Below, one piece after another: positions 1 to 42,691 of a DNA stretch of 44,087 nucleotides. The stretch's first letter is position 1. The number at the start of each line of letters is the position of its first letter. Origin of the DNA: a virus (Duplodnaviria; Heunggongvirae; Uroviricota; Caudoviricetes); IMG/VR virus record IMGVR_UViG_2541047944_000002, positions 1-44,087 of that record, one strand, 5' to 3'. The translations under genes were made by a program, and so were the position numbers. The notes under the pieces are model-generated. The model did not search any database and was not told the DNA's origin. It saw only the letters and a program-made list of their open reading frames with translations.

Positions 1-342
1 ATGATGAGAAAAAGTATTCTGGCGTTTCTGTTACTCACCAGTTCTGCAGCTGCGCTGGCGGCACCGCAGGTGATTACCGTCAGCCGTTTTGAAGTGGGTA
101 AAGACAAATGGGCGTTTAATCGCGAAGAGGTGATGCTGACTTGCCGACCGGGTAATGCTTTGTATGTCATTAACCCAAGTACCCTCGTGCAGTATCCTTT
201 AAACGATATCGCACAAAAGGAAGTTGCCAGTGGGAAGACTAAAGCCCAACCCATTTCGGTGATTCAGATTGATGATCCTAACAATCCCGGCGAAAAAATG
301 AGTCTGGCACCGTTTATAGAGCGAGCTGAAAAACTCTGTTAA
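1..342 (+). CDS. yebY: Host periplasmic protein YebY (DUF2511-like), full 113-aa ORF
   Basis: ORF with N-terminal signal peptide ([22 protein letters not shown]); sequence recalled from memory as E. coli YebY, the K-12 neighbour of pphA. No search run. Confidence 0.65.
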
Positions 343-3666: not shown

Positions 3667-6600
3667 TCAGATGCTCAGTGCTTCAAGACGACGAAGATCA
3701 AAGTCGTTTAATTCGTCGGTATAACTTTCGGTAATCGGTGCTGGCCAGTTGTTTGTCTCCAGCGCTTCGTTTATCTGGTGTAGCGTCCGGCGATATTCCT
3801 GTCGACCAAGTTCAAGGAGTTCCTGCGAGGCTTCCACGACTGCCACCCAGTGATAGCCAGCATCTTTGTTGACGAAGATCCAGAAAAATTTGTCCAGGTT
3901 TGCCACATCGCAATACATTGCGGCGCTGAGGTGATAATCACGCTCAATAATTTCACGGTGCAGGCGATCTTTAAGTCGTTCCTGCCGCACATAACCGAGG
4001 CTGACTGACTTCACGTCAGCGCAAATGCTTTCGTATGGCAGCCGGATTTCGATATCAGGACGGACCCTGATTTCCAGCCCGGTTTCTTCATCAAACCCGA
4101 AATAGCTGATTTCAGATTTGCGATCCGGGTGGTTGAGTAGCCTTGCTGCATCGGTATTGTTTTGCAGTGCCGCGTGAATATTTTTTGCCTGTTCATACAT
4201 ATCCGGACTGATAAACGTTTTCCCGGCGTTTTCTTCTTGCTGGCGTTTTTGCCAGTCCTCCAGTGTCACCAGTTCCGGGCGAATTTTCCGTGCGATTTCG
4301 GTTAATTGCTCTTTTGTGCCACTGATGTTGTAAGGCAAAGATTTAGCACGTTCTTTTTTTGCCAGTTCTGGATCTACAGTTTCAATTTGATCCAGAAGCT
4401 GCTCCCGTGCTCCACTGGTTTTCAACAGAGGAGGGAGGCTTGCGTTGTATTCTTTAATACAGGCTTTCATTGCTGATGCTGTGTGTTTTTCCCCCTCAGG
4501 AATACGCCGAAATTCCACCGGAAGCGAACCGTAAAGGATGCCTGTTTCTTCGGCCCCAGCACTTACAGACAGTGGCTGTATAAGAGTGCTGTTGTAGCTT
4601 TCGATCCACTCTTTCATCTGCTCTGGTGTCATCAGTGCTGGCAGACTGGCATTGTGTTTTTTAATGATGGCGATCAGTTCGTTAGAAGTAGTAACCACAT
4701 ATTCAGGAACCGGTACCGGAATGGCATATTCATCAGCGAATTTATCCGTTTCCAGAACATAGCTGTGAATGATCCGCCCACGCAGCAGTGCATCACTTTC
4801 CTCGTTCGGAATAGTTCCGGCAATGTGCCGCCCGTGGTAATACATCAGGCTGATACGGGCATCCTTCAGCATCGTGCTGCTTATTCCGTTGGCGGAGTGA
4901 TAAACCTCGTTCGGGAGGTTTTCATAGCGGCCTGGCTCGAAATATGACGGCCACATGATTTCAGTTGCTACAGGAGCTGACGCTTCGCCAGTTTCATCAC
5001 TGCAATTGCGATGCGGATCGCTGTCAGCATTCTCATTGTGCGGATGTTCAGCGCCTTCCATTTTCTCCGGCTCATTTTCCCGAACTTCAACCTGATTCTC
5101 GTCATCGAATGTTTCCTGATATGTTGCGTCGCCCATCACCGCACCACAGTCAGGGCAGTTATCCCCGCCAGACTGACCGCAGGCATTGCAAACTTTTTCC
5201 ACTTCCTGTTGCGCCACTGGTTCAGGCTGTTTCGTTTCTGGCTCGTTTTGTAACGCATTTGGGCTGTTTTGTTCCGCTTTCTGGTCGTTCTGTTCCGATT
5301 CTTGTTGGTTCTGGTTCACTGAATCGCGGGTTTCAATCCCCTTCACCCATTTCGGATCATTCGGGTCGCTAATCCCCTCAACAAATTCTCCGCGAGAGGC
5401 AGCCAGCAATTTGTCGGCATCGACAGGATTTTTGGGCGGAATGGTTTTCCGGGCTTCATGAAGTTCTGCCCGCAGTTTCTGATATTTCGCATCAACAGAA
5501 TTTACCTGTGACTGAGCATCCAGCGGCTGCGTGTCCTGATGATGTTCAGTTGCATCCGGTTCCACTGTTTCAGCCGTTGCCTGTTCATCTGCCATTGCGC
5601 AAGATGGTTGCGGTTTTTCTTCATCATCCTGTTTTTCTTCTTCTGTTACCCGCTGCGGCATCGGGGCAGAGGAGCGACCGCAGGCAATATCCACGATTTC
5701 CGGATCAGGGTTGGCATGATCGGTTTCAGTCAGTACTTTGTTCAGATATTCAGTGACGTGTGCGGGGATAACCTCGATCCCAATTGGTGCTTCTTTTACG
5801 GACGCAACCACGATGGCGCGGGAATAATCCAGCCCGCCAGGCATGGCGATGAATTTGTCGCGGAAAACAGAAAAGGGCGGTTTATTTTCAGCGATAATTT
5901 CCTCGACACGTTTAGCGTGTGCCGGATGAAGGTTATAAATGTCCACGTCCATTGAACGGGCCAGTACGCCAGTGGCTACATCGCGTGCCAGTGACGTCAG
6001 ATCGTGGACGAAACCTTCGCCGCGATCGGTGAGGTTCCCGCCGCCAGCATTAGCACCGGAAGCCGTGCGAGTGATGCGTGAAACACGATTTCCTTTCATC
6101 CACTCTTTTGTCAGCAGACCGCGATCGGTGTAGTCTGCGTCCAGGTATGCTTCGAAAAAAGCAGTCATCAGCCCCAGACTTGAATTGCCTGGATTAGGGA
6201 AAACTTTGTCAGTATCACGAACCAGTCTGTGAAGATCGCGAATCTCCAGCAGGTCGAGCAGGCTGGTTTTGTGGGAAACAGCCAGGGCAGTAACAGCTGG
6301 TAGTTCTTCAGCCCGTGCAATATGTAATGTCTGGAGTTCGTCGCGTGAAACGTGCGTTACCGGTTTTTCGCTGCCGTGTTGAGCAAGCCAGCGAATGGGC
6401 AGCTCTTGGCCAGAAATCGGGAGTAGCATATTCTCCTCAATCTCAGTCATGTCTTCGCCATTAACATTGGTATTGTCAGTGCTGGCTGGTTTGTCCTGCG
6501 CAGAGGATGAGGGCGCGATAAATACCATTGTGATGCCATCTTCCCCGCCTTTTTCGTAACGGTTGCAGAATTCCGTATCAAATACGCCTTCTGGTGGAAG

Positions 6601-19237: not shown

Positions 19238-19361
19238 ATTTAAGGCCGCAGACAGGCCCAATTAGTGCAACGCCTTTCCCCGTTTCCGCTCCTGGAATAT
19301 TCGGGGATTTTTTATTCCCTCAATTTGCACCCGCGATATGTGCGAGGTGAGAGATGATGAA

Positions 19362-19697
19362 ATGCCTCATAACCCAAATACTTGGCCGGACTGGCTGGAG
19401 TTGTTTCAGAGCTGGTGGCGTGGAGACACTCCGCTGGGCGCAGTGATTATGTCGATCGTTATGGCTGGTTTGCGCATCGCCTATTTTGGCGGTGATGGGG
19501 GCTGGAAACGAAAAACGCTTGAGATTTTGCTCTGTGGTGCCCTGACGCTGACCTTTGCATCCGCGCTTGAGTATGTCGGATGGCCTAAATCACTTTCTGT
19601 TGCCATTGGTGGTGGGGTGGGGCTGATTGGTGTTGATGCTATTCGTGGTGCGGCAATGAGGGTCATCGGTAACAAGTTCGGTGCCCATAAGGAGTAA
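19362..19697 (+). CDS. Holin (lambda S-like); possible dual start with in-frame ATG at 19338
   Basis: Multiple hydrophobic segments; RBS before ATG 19362; directly upstream of endolysin. Confidence 0.65.
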   Translation: MPHNPNTWPDWLELFQSWWRGDTPLGAVIMSIVMAGLRIAYFGGDGGWKRKTLEILLCGALTLTFASALEYVGWPKSLSVAIGGGVGLIGVDAIRGAAMRVIGNKFGAHKE

Positions 19698-35146: not shown

Positions 35147-36181
35147 ATGTCGAAAAACTGGATGCGTCACTTTGAATTATTGCTTGTTGATGATAAGGGC
35201 GACGGGATAAAAATTTCTGAGCTTAAAGTCACTTTCAATATTCAGAAAATGCCTGCGACCATATTCAATGGATTCGTTGGGAATTTTAAGGTTTATAACC
35301 TGTCCCCTACCACTCAGAACCGGATTATGCAGAAGGAGTTTTCGCGTATACAGGTTATTGCCGGATACAAGGGGCAACCGGATGCAGCAGGTAATTATCC
35401 TGATGAAAACGTTGGTATGATATTCAATGGAGATATCCGTTTTACTGTCACTGGTAAAGATAATGCCACAGACAGTTGGATCATGTTGCAGTGTATTGAC
35501 AGCTGGGAAGGCCATCTGAATGCAAGTGTGAAAACCACAGTGGCAGCTGGCTGGAAGTACAGCGATCTTTTCAGTCTGGGTATGAAATCATTCGAACCAT
35601 ATGGCATCGAATCCGGCGCAGTTCCTGACATGCCGGAAACGGTATTTCCCCGAGGGCGCGTTGTTTATCAAAACACATCAAGGTTGATGAATCATATCGC
35701 AGGGCAGTGTAAAGCTAACTGGTGGTATGAAAATAATCTGGTAAATATTGTTCCTGAAGATAAATATATTGGTGTTGCTACGGTGTTGAATGCTAACACC
35801 GGGCTTATCGGTATGCCACAGCAGACGATGGGAGCTGGCGTAAATGTCAGATGCCTGATTAATCCAAATATTAAGCTCGGTGGGCTTATTCGTCTGGATC
35901 AGGCATCTGTATACCGTGCCTCTTTGAGTAATGACCAGGTAGCGAAATCGCCAGCACGACTGGATGAGTCTGAAAGCGACGGTAATCTCTACGTTAACGG
36001 TCTGCCAGGCATGTCACAGCCTGCCAGCATTAATACTGACGGTGATTACATTGTGGGCAGCATTGATTATACTGGCGACACCCGAGGGCAGGCGTGGTAT
36101 ATGGACCTGCTTTGCCTGGCTAAAGGTGGCAAAGAACTATTGGCAAAAGGCACTTTGGACAAAGTCGGAGATGTAGAGTGA
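35147..36181 (+). CDS. Baseplate hub-like protein (Mu gpP-like position)
   Basis: Gene order. Confidence 0.45.
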   Translation: MSKNWMRHFELLLVDDKGDGIKISELKVTFNIQKMPATIFNGFVGNFKVYNLSPTTQNRIMQKEFSRIQVIAGYKGQPDAAGNYPDENVGMIFNGDIRFTVTGKDNATDSWIMLQCIDSWEGHLNASVKTTVAAGWKYSDLFSLGMKSFEPYGIESGAVPDMPETVFPRGRVVYQNTSRLMNHIAGQCKANWWYENNLVNIVPEDKYIGVATVLNANTGLIGMPQQTMGAGVNVRCLINPNIKLGGLIRLDQASVYRASLSNDQVAKSPARLDESESDGNLYVNGLPGMSQPASINTDGDYIVGSIDYTGDTRGQAWYMDLLCLAKGGKELLAKGTLDKVGDVE

Positions 36182-36513
36182 AAAAAGTATTTTTTTGTTT
36201 ATTCTTGGCCCTGCCGTTAACAGTTTCGGCGGCAACGCAGTGCGGACCATTCCGCTTTGATGCTGGTAATGATGGCCTCATGCACATCAATGGTCAAAAG
36301 CCAGAAACACAAAAAATGACCTTTTTGAAACAAAAAGACGATTTCGATAATGTCATGATGCAATGGATGTTACCTGATCCTAATACTGGACGTTGGTTAG
36401 GTATGGACTACATCAAACGAAACAAAAAAGCGATCCTCAACGTTGAAGTTATCCGCAAAAATATGGACGAGCCTCGGGAGTTCTGGACGTATGATTGCCG
36501 GAAGGTGAAGTGA
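36178..36513 (+). CDS. Secreted hypothetical protein inside tail cluster
   Basis: GTG start overlapping upstream stop (GTGA); signal peptide MKKVFFCLFLALPLTVSA-ATQC; two Cys; no structural role evident. Confidence 0.5.
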   Translation: MKKVFFCLFLALPLTVSAATQCGPFRFDAGNDGLMHINGQKPETQKMTFLKQKDDFDNVMMQWMLPDPNTGRWLGMDYIKRNKKAILNVEVIRKNMDEPREFWTYDCRKVK

Positions 36514-36585
36514 ATTACATTGGCGTCCAGCTTCTGCAGAACAGCATGGATGCGCCGAAAATCATCGGTTCCTTTCCATGCAAAA

Positions 36586-36620
36586 AGATTGTTGATTAAT
36601 CACCCGTAATTATAATGTGA
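36586..36620 (+). promoter_or_regulatory. Sigma70-type promoter TTGTTG-16-TATAAT for the 36653 gene
   Basis: gattgttgattaatcacccgtaattataat: near-consensus -10 with 16-bp spacing, about 30 nt upstream of the ATG. Confidence 0.45.
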
Positions 36621-36652
36621 TACTTCTACTTTCACGATAAGGAATTTGTCGC

Positions 36653-36892
36653 ATGTTCGGATTTGATAAATTAATAACTCCAAAAATCATCAACGTTCTG
36701 TATGGCATCACAATGTTACTTCTGGTTGTTGCCGCCATTATAACGTTTGTTAATGGGAAGGCTGCTGGCGCTTTAGTGCTTTTGTTATGTGCTGTATTTT
36801 GCCGAATATTCTTTGAGTGCATCATGGTTTCATTTAAAAACAATGAGTATCTTCGCCGAATAGCTGAAGCGTTAGAAGCAAACAAGCAGTAA
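36653..36892 (+). CDS. Small two-TM membrane protein inside tail cluster
   Basis: Two hydrophobic helices (ITMLLLVVAAIITFV; ALVLLLCAVFCRIFFECIMV); own promoter and terminator. Confidence 0.55.
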   Translation: MFGFDKLITPKIINVLYGITMLLLVVAAIITFVNGKAAGALVLLLCAVFCRIFFECIMVSFKNNEYLRRIAEALEANKQ

Positions 36893-36910
36893 TGAAACTT
36901 CAATAATGAA

Positions 36911-36932
36911 CCCGCCACCCGGCGGGTTTTTT
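36911..36932 (+). terminator. Intrinsic terminator after the 36653 gene
   Basis: cccgcc-accc-ggcggg followed by tttttt. Confidence 0.6.
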
Positions 36933-36951
36933 ACTTTCTGGAGACATATGA

Positions 36952-37704
36952 ATGCCCGTTTCTTTAAGCGCTCAACTTGGTAGCAAAGAACAGGCCGATG
37001 TAAGACTTGCTGGCTCTGTCATGTCGGCGCTGCGTGTTTCTATGCCCGGCATCGTCCAGTCATTTGATCCGGACACGGTAACAGTGGTTGTTCAACCTGC
37101 GATTAAAGGCTATGAGCCGGACTCAAATGGAATCAACCAGTCGACGACATTACCCCTGCTGGTGGATGTGCCAGTGGTATTTCCGCGCGGCGGAGGCTGT
37201 ACGTTGACTTTTCCGGTAAAAGCCGGTGATGAATGTTTGGTGATTTTTGCCGATCGTTGTATTGATTTCTGGTGGCAGAGCGGCGGGATACAGGAGCCTG
37301 TCGATGACAGAATGCATGATTTATCGGATGCGTTTTGTATTGTCGGTCCCCAGTCGCAGGCAAGGAAGATTAGCGGTATTAATACCAGTGCCACACAGTT
37401 GCGTAGTGATGACGGCAGCACCTATTTTGAGCTTAATCCTGATACCAGGAAAATTAAAATTGTCGCTCCGGGGGGGCTTGATGTGGTTGCCCCCCTGGCT
37501 GATTTTTCTGAGAAAGTAACCATTCATGGCCTGTTAACCTGGATGGGGGGCATGGTGGGGTCTGTTGTTTCTGGTGTGGCTTCAAAAATCACTGGTGCTG
37601 TTGAGTTTTTGGGTAGCGTGAATGCTAACGGCAAGCCAATCGATGATACGCACACTCATGGCGGTGTTCAGTGCGGTGGAAGCAATACCGATGGGGTAAA
37701 CTGA
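36952..37704 (+). CDS. Baseplate spike/assembly protein (P2 gpV / Mu gp45-like)
   Basis: Position and size in the Mu-like baseplate block. Confidence 0.55.
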   Translation: MPVSLSAQLGSKEQADVRLAGSVMSALRVSMPGIVQSFDPDTVTVVVQPAIKGYEPDSNGINQSTTLPLLVDVPVVFPRGGGCTLTFPVKAGDECLVIFADRCIDFWWQSGGIQEPVDDRMHDLSDAFCIVGPQSQARKISGINTSATQLRSDDGSTYFELNPDTRKIKIVAPGGLDVVAPLADFSEKVTIHGLLTWMGGMVGSVVSGVASKITGAVEFLGSVNANGKPIDDTHTHGGVQCGGSNTDGVN

Positions 37705-40604: not shown

Positions 40605-41047
40605 TGATGAAATATCTGTACGTAAACAACCTGGCATATCCTTACGAACTTCAGTCTCTTTATGTTGAAAAAGGTGAGTGGCCTGAAGAAAAAGGTGTTG
40701 ATATAGACGAAGTAATTTTCAGGGAATATTTCTATGATACACCACCAGAAGGAAAATACAGATGTGTCGGAGAAGATGGACTGCCTGCATGGGTAGATAT
40801 TCCTCCACCAACACGTGAAGAACAAATTGCATCAGCCGAAACTAAAAAGCAGCAATTGATTAATCAGGCCAACGAATACATCAACAGTAAACAATGGCCA
40901 GGTAAAGCATCAATTGGTCGTCTGAAAGGTGAGGAACTGGCGCAATATAATTTGTGGCTGGATTATCTGGACGCACTGGAAATGGTCGATACTTCCAGTG
41001 CGCCAGATATTGAATGGCCTACGCCTCCGGCAGTTCAGGCCAGATGA
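40604..41047 (+). CDS. Tail fibre assembly protein (Tfa / Mu U-like)
   Basis: 147-aa ORF after fibre gene; conserved C-terminal motif shared with the convergent minus-strand paralogue (DYLDALEMVDTSSAPDIEWP vs DYIDAVTATDTSTAPDVIWP). Confidence 0.65.
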   Translation: MMKYLYVNNLAYPYELQSLYVEKGEWPEEKGVDIDEVIFREYFYDTPPEGKYRCVGEDGLPAWVDIPPPTREEQIASAETKKQQLINQANEYINSKQWPGKASIGRLKGEELAQYNLWLDYLDALEMVDTSSAPDIEWPTPPAVQAR

Positions 41048-41612
41048 CATCCGGCGCGGTGCTCGTATCTGTTGCCGTCACCGCGTCAATGTAATCAAGC
41101 ACGGCGTTAAGCCGGGTGGTTTCTGCCTGAGTCAGTTTCCGTCCGGCCTGTAATTTCAGCTGAATCAGACTGATGGAAGCCATTGCAGCATCAATCAGTG
41201 ACTGGCGCTGTGCTTCTGCCGCTTCTACTGCGGCACCGTGTTGTGCCTCAGAATCTGTCACCCATTTCTCACCATCCCATTTATCATATGGCGTTAACGG
41301 TGAAAGCGTGACATAACCGTTTTTGATGGCACCGATATAATCCACTGTAACAGCAGCACCATTTTCAATTGAGTAAACAGTCTCATTGCGATGGTCTTCT
41401 TCATGGCTCCATCCCTTACCTGTAAATACTGCCACTCTTCCCGGAATGTTTTCGCCCGGGTCAATACCAGTGGAACAGGCGGGCATACTTACGCCAGTAT
41501 TAATATATTCATCAGACCAGCCCGTATACTCAGATGTTTCAGCATCATAATAAAAACAACGCATATCGCCCGGCACTGTAGCCAGCCCATTTTCATCAAA
41601 AACAGGTTTCAT
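41019..41612 (-). CDS. Alternative tail fibre assembly protein (Tfa-prime)
   Basis: Convergent paralogue of the Tfa gene within the invertible segment. Confidence 0.65.
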   Translation of the reverse strand: MKPVFDENGLATVPGDMRCFYYDAETSEYTGWSDEYINTGVSMPACSTGIDPGENIPGRVAVFTGKGWSHEEDHRNETVYSIENGAAVTVDYIGAIKNGYVTLSPLTPYDKWDGEKWVTDSEAQHGAAVEAAEAQRQSLIDAAMASISLIQLKLQAGRKLTQAETTRLNAVLDYIDAVTATDTSTAPDVIWPELPEA

Positions 41613-42109
41613 TATTTAGCCCTCACCAGAAAGTTAAATGCAATATTTCGCGGTCTGACAGCAACAAAATTCACACCATCACCCACAGAGTTACTGGTGA
41701 AATTAAATCGTGAAAATCCTGGCTGATTTCCGGCGATACCATCATGAAAGTTAATTGCGTGGCCCGCACCATCGCCTATATTCCCGGCAAACTGAGAAAA
41801 GTTTGTAGCTGCCTGCCAGCTTAATAATTCGCGACCACCGTCTGCACCTCGCCCGTCATCCCAGATACGAATGAAATCACCGCGGGCTTCAGGTAATACC
41901 AGCGAAGGAAACACTTTCGCCAGCACAGGATAATCAGTGGCAGAGAATTTCGCGCCGTTGAACTTCAAAAACACCATACTGGACCAACTGTCGATGACAG
42001 AATTTGGCATTGCAGCGGACGGCCAGAAGAACGGAACGCCAATAGCTGGAGCACCTTCTCCCAAACCAACGTTTAAGAAAATGCAGAGGTAACAGCTAAC
42101 TGGCATCAT
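41612..42109 (-). CDS. Alternative tail fibre variable C-terminal segment (promoterless in this orientation)
   Basis: Reads through the right crossover site in frame (…FLNVGLGEG…, compare …LENLGLGEA… in the expressed fibre); Gly-rich like the expressed C-terminus. Confidence 0.6.
   Translation of the reverse strand: MMPVSCYLCIFLNVGLGEGAPAIGVPFFWPSAAMPNSVIDSWSSMVFLKFNGAKFSATDYPVLAKVFPSLVLPEARGDFIRIWDDGRGADGGRELLSWQAATNFSQFAGNIGDGAGHAINFHDGIAGNQPGFSRFNFTSNSVGDGVNFVAVRPRNIAFNFLVRAK
42056..42081. other. Right 26-bp invertase crossover site (gix/pix-like)
   Basis: ttctcccaaaccaacgtttaagaaaa, imperfect dyad, resembles recalled hix/gix consensus; 55 bp upstream of the invertase gene. Confidence 0.6.
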
Positions 42110-42136
42110 CCCCGGTTTTTATTCAGGGGGATAATC

Positions 42137-42691
42137 ATGCTTATTGGCTATGTACGCGTGTCAACAAATGACCAGAACACCGATTTGCAACGTAATGCAC
42201 TGAACTGCGCGGGATGTGAGCGGATTTTTGAGGATAAAATCAGTGGCACTAAGTCCGACAGACCGGGGCTGAAAAAACTGCTCAGGACATTATCGGCAGG
42301 TGACACTCTGGTTGTCTGGAAGCTGGATCGGCTGGGGCGTAGTATGCGACATCTGGTCATTCTGGTTGAGGAGTTGCGCGAACGAGGCATCAACTTTCGT
42401 AGTCTGACTGATTCAATTGATACCAGCACACCAATGGGACGCTTTTTTTTCCATGTGATGGGTGCCCTGGCTGAAATGGAACGTGAACTGATTGTTGAAC
42501 GAACAAAAGCAGGACTGGAAGCTGCTCGCGCACAGGGACGAATTGGTGGACGACGTCCCAAACTTACACCAGAACAATGGGCACAGGCCGGACGACTAAT
42601 TGCATCAGGAGCTCCTCGCCAGAAGGTGGCGATTATCTATGATGTTGGTGTGTCAACTTTGTATAAGAGGTTTCCGGTCGGAGATAAATGA
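42137..42691 (+). CDS. pin: Serine DNA invertase, Pin/Gin/Hin/Cin family
   Basis: MLIGYVRVSTNDQNTDLQ... with catalytic Ser in the VRVS motif; C-terminal HTH; adjacent to invertible segment. Confidence 0.9.
   Translation: MLIGYVRVSTNDQNTDLQRNALNCAGCERIFEDKISGTKSDRPGLKKLLRTLSAGDTLVVWKLDRLGRSMRHLVILVEELRERGINFRSLTDSIDTSTPMGRFFFHVMGALAEMERELIVERTKAGLEAARAQGRIGGRRPKLTPEQWAQAGRLIASGAPRQKVAIIYDVGVSTLYKRFPVGDK

Follow-up and report, generated by a model that had tools for sequence, protein, structure and literature searches.

A DUF4282 membrane protein as probable movable cargo of a variable slot between the baseplate hub and spike genes of a lambdoid prophage

Introduction

HK97 gp15, the founding case of superinfection exclusion at the inner membrane, is a small inner-membrane protein that is encoded by a moron in the tail operon, beside the tape-measure gene, and is expressed from the prophage (PMC3594210). 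It blocks DNA entry in a tail-dependent manner and leaves the receptor untouched, and morons in general carry a promoter and a terminator of their own (PMC3594210). P22 SieA is likewise an inner-membrane blocker of DNA injection, in which the membrane segments vary and one motif on the cytoplasmic face is conserved (PMC10883804). Here we describe two small genes, called gene 1 and gene 2, that lie between the baseplate hub and spike genes of a Caudoviricetes record (IMGVR_UViG_2541047944_000002, positions 1 to 44,087; this whole stretch of 44,087 nucleotides (nt) is called the window). A preliminary description, made from the letters of the window, had taken both genes as one insertion with its own promoter and terminator. 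In our comparison only gene 2, which encodes a predicted inner-membrane protein of the DUF4282 family, appears as a movable insertion, the cargo of a hypervariable slot.

Results

Layout from hub to spike

The region follows one order, namely the hub gene, a gene for an exported protein, a variable cargo slot, a conserved terminator and the spike gene. Judged from related sequences, this fixed layout and the status of gene 2 as a moron are very probable. The features concerned are the following.

35147..36181, plus strand: baseplate hub gene, the left anchor (PF22759 E217_GP41, E 1.4e-7; phrog_196 baseplate hub, E 3e-80)
36178..36513, plus strand: gene 1, predicted Sec-exported protein of 111 amino acids (aa), STY1065/STY2022 family, phrog_3443 (signal peptide, C22 and C107, AlphaFold2)
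36516..36599, plus strand: putative fossil of a second gene 1 allele, of which the last 27 codons are left, reading YIGVQLLQNSMDAPKIIGSFPCKKIVD and a stop (in-frame match to the allele of E. coli RM8082)
36589..36616, plus strand: predicted gene 2 promoter of sigma-70 type, TTGTTG-16 nt-TATAAT (-35 at 36589-94, -10 at 36611-16)
36653..36892, plus strand: gene 2, DUF4282 protein of 79 aa, predicted inner-membrane hairpin (PF14110, phrog_12129, AlphaFold2, hydropathy)
36908..36934, plus strand: intrinsic terminator GAACCCGCC-ACCC-GGCGGGTTT with a T-run (hairpin 36908..36929, directly before the spike ribosome-binding site)
36952..37704, plus strand: baseplate spike gene, the right anchor (N-terminal PF18352, E 1.5e-44; Apex motif; TIGR01644 phage_P2_V)

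The hub gene was kept in every relative compared. Both open reading frames (ORFs) named in the preliminary description exist and match RefSeq proteins, WP_000755137.1 for gene 1, which bears the family name STY1065/STY2022, and WP_000466689.1 for gene 2. Their place between a hub-like gene (E217_GP41/phrog_196) and a spike gene (PF18352 with Apex motif), the signal peptide of the first product and the two transmembrane (TM) segments of the second were likewise borne out. The reading as a two-gene insertion holds for gene 2 and fails for gene 1, which overlaps the hub stop codon and is found in most relatives.

Variability and contents of the slot

Relatives were sampled, without bias, as 80 viral contigs picked by their hub gene. 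Gene 2 is present in 8/80 of them and thus absent from most close relatives, as is typical of a moron in the sense of Juhala and Hendrix; gene 1, present in 73/80, does not behave in this way. Among E. coli genomes, 318 match the 3 kb around the gene 2 cassette, and 83 have at least 80% of the cassette itself. In 75 hub-selected loci the slot between gene 1 and the spike gene shows 34 architectures and about 40 ORF clusters, and its length ranges from 57 to 2972 nt, empty slots measuring 57-79 nt. In the table of slot architectures the DUF4282 cassette is represented by an antisense ORF of 102 aa over gene 2 (36610..36918, minus strand), which was rejected as spurious, as it matches no family and the sense frame has a Pfam match and cross-genus conservation.

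The cargo of relatives includes the defence systems PD-Lambda-1 (E 5e-83) and PDC-S42 (E 2e-36), a protein of 266-273 aa paired with a HEPN_IX-like partner, a P22-type antirepressor module (Arc/Arc/Ant), a bPH_2 membrane protein, a SecB-like set and further secreted proteins. The loci with PD-Lambda-1, PDC-S42, the HEPN_IX-like pair and Arc/Arc/Ant are L035 (3407..4636), L036 (2830..4059), L033 (4436..5305), L003 (3004..4175), L037 (4404..5589) and L002 (2939..4490), and many other cargo ORFs are without family assignment.

The terminator as right border of the slot

The terminator has nine pairs, six of them G-C, with a free energy of -16 kcal/mol and a following T6, and no other terminator-like site in the list for the 20 kb structural region is placed above it. 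A hairpin ACCCGC-loop-GCGGGTTTTTT stands upstream of the spike gene in 10/10 relatives with different cargo, the spike ribosome-binding site lying within a few bases, and a near-identical terminator is also found in five loci with an empty slot (L032, L169, L173, L215 and L217). Its assignment to the DUF4282 cassette was rejected, since the alignment of these ten relatives and five empty slots keeps the hairpin. Because the same hairpin occurs with each cargo and in empty slots, the terminator is best read as a backbone feature that forms the conserved right boundary of the slot, and it provides no evidence of gene 2 autonomy. The strong terminator of the preliminary description is real, as a possession of the slot and not of gene 2. 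Cargo would enter between the stop codon of gene 1 and the terminator hairpin. DUF4282 genes in other contexts likewise have a terminator at their 3' side. In a second lineage (L124-L153) an analogous conserved terminator was observed between the tape-measure and Dit genes. In the sequences compared, a conserved terminator seems to be the mark of a cargo slot within a tail operon.

Gene 1, a probably exported backbone gene behind the hub

The product of gene 1 belongs to phrog_3443 (E 7e-48). Its family is small, since a set of 1.84 billion proteins contains only 55 cluster representatives of it. Its GTG start overlaps the TGA stop of the hub gene (GTGA), with GGAG 7 nt upstream of the GTG, an arrangement that points to translational coupling to the hub gene. 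The N-terminus, MKKVFFCLFLALPLTVSA/ATQC, reads as a Sec-type signal; the character of a signal peptide was retained in 39/39 aligned homologues and its sequence was not, and C22 and C107 are invariant among homologues. AlphaFold2 led to a model of an 8-stranded beta-barrel with a predicted local distance difference test score (pLDDT) of 87.6. Comparison at the DNA level led to E. coli prophages, Escherichia phage vB_EcoM-689R2 and Yersinia phage YP3 as relatives, all of which have a gene of 111-113 aa directly 3' of the hub, 28-66% identical to gene 1, with the signal peptide and the two cysteines kept.

That gene 1 is universal after the hub had to be rejected for the hub-selected sample, where 7/80 loci are exceptions and encode an unrelated exported protein in its place. 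Six of them (L164, L166, L173, L175, L176 and L196; about 4522..4776) have a signal-peptide protein of 80-84 aa with Cys/Thr/Gly repeats of TNTGTTYC type, the ORFs being read directly in L164, L173, L175 and L196 and taken from identical coordinates in L166 and L176; the seventh (L224, 4568..5296) has a lipoprotein of 242 aa. Because either gene 1 or an unrelated exported substitute was found at each hub-selected locus, the post-hub position appears always to encode a protein sent across the inner membrane. Alleles of gene 1 have been swapped without a parallel exchange of the hub, spike and tape-measure genes, as seen from hubs that are 98-99% identical while gene 1 is 60-65% identical. Taken together, gene 1 reads as a long-standing backbone gene of the phage lineage and not as an insertion.

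The preliminary description had suggested a comparison with related tail modules, in which conservation of both proteins as structural baseplate components would speak against an insertion. Gene 2 turned out to be mostly absent, as predicted, and gene 1 to be conserved, yet gene 1 does not look like a structural component: it has a signal peptide and a cysteine pair, is without a Pam3 counterpart and is replaced in 7/80 loci. Six proteins make up the complete baseplate of Pam3, in which the hub (gp19) and the spike (gp20) have consecutive gene numbers (PMC9942802). Edwardsiella phage GF-2 has overlapping hub and spike genes and no gene between the two. The paper on the E217 virion structure, in which 19 proteins were built, makes no mention of gp42, whose gene stands between those of hub gp41 and tip gp43 (PMC10329688); gp42 may be the counterpart of the non-structural post-hub position. 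In view of the six-protein baseplate of Pam3, the overlap in GF-2, the unmentioned gp42 and the independent allele swaps, gene 1 is unlikely to be part of the virion, and we consider it quite probable that its product is exported and non-structural.

Searches with gene 1 against NCBIfam and PADLOC gave no match, and a PDB profile search with its family gave chance-level matches only. Neither sequence nor fold similarity was found to the periplasmic lysozyme inhibitors (MliC/PliC, Ivy) or to T4 Spackle, and the literature searched contained no biological paper on STY1065/STY2022. One further element may concern this gene.

36045..36073, plus strand: candidate weak internal promoter ATTACA-17-TATACT at the hub 3' end (scanner, 9/12 matches)

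It lies about 105 nt upstream of gene 1, and its TATACT is kept in 18/22 divergent loci while nearby synonymous sites vary; the same letters also encode a conserved Tyr-Thr. That this promoter could transcribe gene 1 separately in lysogens is speculative.

The spacer between the genes

Gene 1 and gene 2 are separated by 139 nt. A scan of 35900-37100 against Rfam at E <= 1 detected no RNA family, so that the spacer corresponds to no known small RNA or riboswitch. The in-frame translation of 36516..36599 corresponds, from VQLLQ to the stop, to the C-terminal end of the other gene 1 allele, which is intact in E. coli RM8082, where a 99%-identical DUF4282 cassette follows directly 3' of that allele. 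The stretch also aligns with annotated genes of the gene 1 family in many of 320 E. coli genomes matched (80-92% DNA identity), and the stub is more decayed in a relative with different cargo (L006). The last codons of the fossil allele (I-V-D) form the -35 hexamer of the gene 2 promoter. Since the fossil matches the end of the RM8082 allele and supplies the -35, the cassette most probably stood first behind the second allele, and a later recombination brought in the present hub and gene 1, leaving the stub.

The pattern TTGNNN-16..18-TATAAT occurs once in the window when both strands are scanned, at the gene 2 promoter; shuffled sequences lead to an expectation of about 1.3 per window, so that the count is not above chance and what matters is its placement upstream of a gene. 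The stock promoter scan omits this site, its -35 matching the consensus at 3/6 positions, and the motif was detected with a dedicated script. The near-consensus promoter of the preliminary description is thus present as the only such motif in the window, with a -35 that falls well short of consensus. It is identical in the RM8082 cassette, and comparable hexamers, read by eye, stand 5' of DUF4282 genes in Klebsiella (TTGATA-18-TATAAC) and Pantoea (TTGAAA-17-TAAGAT). The GC content is 0.37-0.39 over 36500-36900 as against 0.45-0.55 in the flanks, a base composition as expected for a moron.

The gene 2 product

Gene 2 is preceded by a Shine-Dalgarno sequence (AAGGA) 8 nt upstream of its ATG. Its product reached 42.2 bits with PF14110, for which the curated cutoff is 27, over profile positions 2-85 of 86, and matches phrog_12129 end to end. 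Hydropathy indicates two hydrophobic helices, and the AlphaFold2 model is a helical hairpin (H10-33/H37-78, pLDDT 86). By the positive-inside rule both termini are predicted to be cytoplasmic, with about 4-6 unconserved residues facing the periplasm. Alignment of 29 DUF4282 homologues from many genera showed that the membrane cores vary and that TP.I near the N-terminus, R51, F54-E55 and the juxtamembrane FKNNEYLRRI are invariant, the FKNNEYLRRI helix being predicted on the cytoplasmic side. A search against NCBIfam gave sub-threshold noise only.

DUF4282 genes elsewhere

A second sample consisted of 80 viral contigs that carry the DUF4282 subfamily of gene 2. In 31 the gene occupies the slot between gene 1 and the spike gene, in about 41 it follows the tape-measure ORF by 0-60 nt, and in 8 it lies elsewhere; the association with the tape-measure gene occurs in at least three tail types. 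Prophages of Pectobacterium and Erwinia have it in the gene-1-to-spike slot (67-68% identity), Klebsiella prophages of siphovirus type directly after the tape-measure gene, and a Salmonella-type lineage between the tape-measure and Dit genes. When the latter lineage was sampled by its Dit gene, DUF4282 was found in 24/30 loci, the remaining ones showing one DUF4282 fossil and otherwise another small membrane protein or larger proteins. In Pantoea the gene follows the lysis cassette (holin-lysozyme-spanin) or lies in prophage remnants flanked by insertion sequences (IS), and in Edwardsiella phage GF-2 (L234, 4294..8316) the order is tape measure, an abutting DUF4282 gene, orf20, Arc, an Arc-like repressor and Ant. 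No chromosomal context outside a prophage was found among the loci examined. Over these contexts DUF4282 appears mobile and tied to the tail-tip module.

Prophage setting and neighbouring features

The window as a whole is a complete prophage with lambdoid regulation. It encodes a lambda-type integrase, a CI-like repressor, a DUF1133/Q-like antiterminator and a holin, and a contractile tail of Pam3/E217 type with a DUF3383 sheath, a Dit-like protein, a Pam3_gp18 plug, an E217_GP41 hub, a PF18352 spike, a sheath initiator, Baseplate_J and a wedge. Phages vB_EcoM-606R2 and -689R2, other sequenced phages and Yersinia YP3 align to the window only from about 37149 on (82-97% identity), which would place a mosaic breakpoint near this position, about 66 codons from the start of the spike gene. 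At 41019..42691, oppositely oriented genes for a tail fibre and a tail-fibre-assembly protein stand beside a site-specific recombinase of pinE type (compare L001, 11928..13608), and this segment looks like an invertible host-range switch.

Discussion

Gene 2 is most likely a classical moron with a role in superinfection exclusion at the inner membrane, an explanation to which, as a whole, we assign a probability of roughly 0.55. Gene 1 would be a periplasmic, disulfide-bonded beta-barrel that is made with the late genes via translational coupling and is not in the virion, and gene 2 would be a promoter-plus-gene unit that borrows the resident terminator of the slot. The host sigma-70 promoter would let gene 2 be transcribed in the lysogen, an expression that we think likely. 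The terminator would keep slot transcripts out of the spike and wedge genes, and during lytic growth late transcription under Q-type antitermination would read through it; both steps are proposed because they follow established lambdoid biology and because the window encodes a Q-like antiterminator. As almost nothing of the gene 2 product is predicted to face the periplasm, it should be unable to mask a receptor or to bind a periplasmic tail tip and would act inside the membrane or on its inner side, where it may interfere with the DNA-entry channel formed by the tape-measure and tail-tip proteins of an incoming phage. Lysogenic conversion or superinfection exclusion is the natural reading because of the variable presence, the sigma-70-type promoter, the low GC content and the membrane location of the protein. 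The choice of exclusion as the function is tentative, somewhat short of an even chance, and was made by analogy, because of the precedents of HK97 gp15 and P22 SieA and the conservation pattern shared with the latter.

Several observations weigh against this explanation. A Pfam scan of gene 2 at E <= 0.1 found only DUF4282 and a sub-threshold YbhQ (E 8e-4), with no homology to the known excluder families YebO/gp15 and T4 Imm; PADLOC at E <= 1 gave no match, a PDB profile search with the family gave nothing significant, and no mention of DUF4282/PF14110 was found in the literature searched. The -35 hexamer agrees with the consensus at only 3/6 positions. The association with tail genes was counted over related contigs and amounts to only a handful of independent events. 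In the Salmonella-type lineage and in GF-2, DUF4282 lies 0-44 nt from the tape-measure stop codon, which leaves no room for an intergenic promoter, and in these contexts it looks like a late gene, possibly with a role in the phage's own cycle. Finally, a cytoplasmic motif that stays invariant from genus to genus and from one tail type to another points to a conserved host partner more than to fast-evolving phage proteins.

This last point leads to an unlikely alternative, in which gene 2 would be a lysogenic-conversion factor, an inner-membrane regulator that binds a conserved host transporter, sensor or protease via its cytoplasmic helix, any phage resistance being indirect. DicB and SgrT reportedly cause such indirect resistance through host physiology, and DicB would be the precedent here. 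FKNNEYLRRI, R51 and E55 do not vary between Escherichia, Pantoea, Klebsiella and Edwardsiella or between tail types, the tiny periplasmic loop is unconserved, DUF4282 follows lysis cassettes and persists in the IS-flanked Pantoea remnants, and the weak likeness to YbhQ, below the family cutoff, is to a host inner-membrane protein. A regulator of this kind is less easily reconciled with the 72/80 DUF4282 contigs that place the gene within the tape-measure/hub/spike segment, with the defence systems among its slot neighbours and with the lack of any chromosomal non-prophage context among the loci examined. It is less probable still that gene 2 serves the lytic cycle, either as a late membrane protein that shields the producer membrane from the tape measure or as a timing factor of holin or antiholin type. 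Here the abutting or overlapping tape-measure genes in many contigs, the presence in 24/30 Dit-selected relatives, the position behind the holin-lysozyme-spanin cassette in Pantoea and the architecture itself, which fits a class II holin (two TM, N-in/C-in, charged C-terminus), are countered by the dispensability of gene 2, which in 72/80 hub-selected relatives is absent and replaced by unrelated cargo or nothing, and by its separate sigma-70-type promoter. Moreover, a holin (19338..19697) and lysis genes are encoded elsewhere in the window, gene 2 lies outside this cassette, and no Pfam holin family matched it.

The lowest probability of the alternatives goes to genes 1 and 2 forming a two-layer exclusion pair of the envelope, a periplasmic binder and an inner-membrane blocker, even though they are not a single insertion. 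The genes are adjacent and their products are predicted for the periplasm and the inner membrane, respectively; that the post-hub product is always exported even if non-homologous, and that gene 1 alleles are swapped independently of nearly identical hubs, is typical of arms-race genes. A partnership would not be obligate, as about 90% of relatives have gene 1 and lack gene 2, and gene 1 is missing where gene 2 is found in Klebsiella, the Salmonella-type lineage, Pantoea and GF-2. A generalization of the exclusion reading is regarded as improbable. In it, DUF4282 would be a widespread class of inner-membrane excluders that block tape-measure-mediated entry from the cytoplasmic face and have landed repeatedly beside tape-measure, hub or spike genes, and the post-hub exported protein would add a periplasmic layer of self-exclusion, the two making up a counterpart of T4 Spackle and Imm in temperate phages, within a hotspot bounded by a terminator.

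The moron with an exclusion role, which we prefer, attaches a testable function to DUF4282 and PHROG 12129, carried by many Enterobacterales prophages. The slot itself appears to be a previously uncatalogued cargo hotspot in a common tail type of E. coli and Salmonella prophages, and with recognised defence systems beside about 40 mostly uncharacterised cargo ORF clusters it is well suited for mining anti-phage genes. The exported post-hub protein could reveal how temperate contractile-tailed phages protect infected or lysogenic cells at the level of the periplasm, and exclusion genes of such kind affect host range, which is of interest for phage therapy. In principle, there is nothing surprising in the hotspot, in the link of DUF4282 to tape-measure genes or in a post-hub protein that is always exported.

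Comparison with known systems

Compared to HK97 gp15, gene 2 shows no sequence relationship, gp15 being a single-pass protein of the YebO family and gene 2 a DUF4282 two-helix hairpin. The function of gp15 was shown by experiment (Cumby et al. 2012, as reviewed in PMC3594210) whereas that of gene 2 is proposed, and the terminator at gene 2 belongs to the backbone slot. Membership in Pfam DUF4282 (PF14110) and PHROG 12129, both annotated as of unknown function, is silent on mechanism. With SieA, DUF4282 shares variable membrane cores and an invariant cytoplasmic motif. The mnt-arc-ant module of P22 belongs to the late region, close to the gene for the tail spike. A single plasmid clone contained sieA, orf59a and mnt, so that sieA adjoins the mnt side of this module (PMC10883804). 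Similarly, Arc/Arc/Ant is found in the slot of relatives of the window, and in GF-2 the DUF4282 gene lies two genes upstream of Arc/repressor/Ant. SieA differs from gene 2 in its size (162-164 aa), its three or four TM helices and its unrelated sequence, and its targets are the ejection proteins of a podovirus, not a contractile tail.

T4 Imm and Spackle (Sp) correspond to gene 2 and gene 1 as a pair in size class and compartment. Gene 2 shows no Pfam match to Imm at E <= 0.1, and Sp is helical whereas gene 1 is modelled as a beta-barrel. Furthermore, Imm and Sp are encoded by early genes of a virulent phage, and the co-occurrence of genes 1 and 2 is not obligatory.

For the slot, the nearest likeness is to hotspots for accessory and defence genes in temperate phages and satellites, namely the P2/P4 hotspots that Rousset et al. 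reportedly described in 2022 and the hyper-variability hotspots reported in a preprint (bioRxiv 10.1101/2024.10.15.618418). No description of a gene-1-to-spike hotspot was found, the supplementary catalogues of the hotspot papers not being included in the search. In common with the P2/P4 and hyper-variability hotspots, the slot is a fixed site between core genes at which unrelated cargo alternates, defence systems included; unlike these hotspots, it lies between the gene for an exported protein and the spike gene of a Pam3/E217-type tail and is bounded by a conserved terminator.

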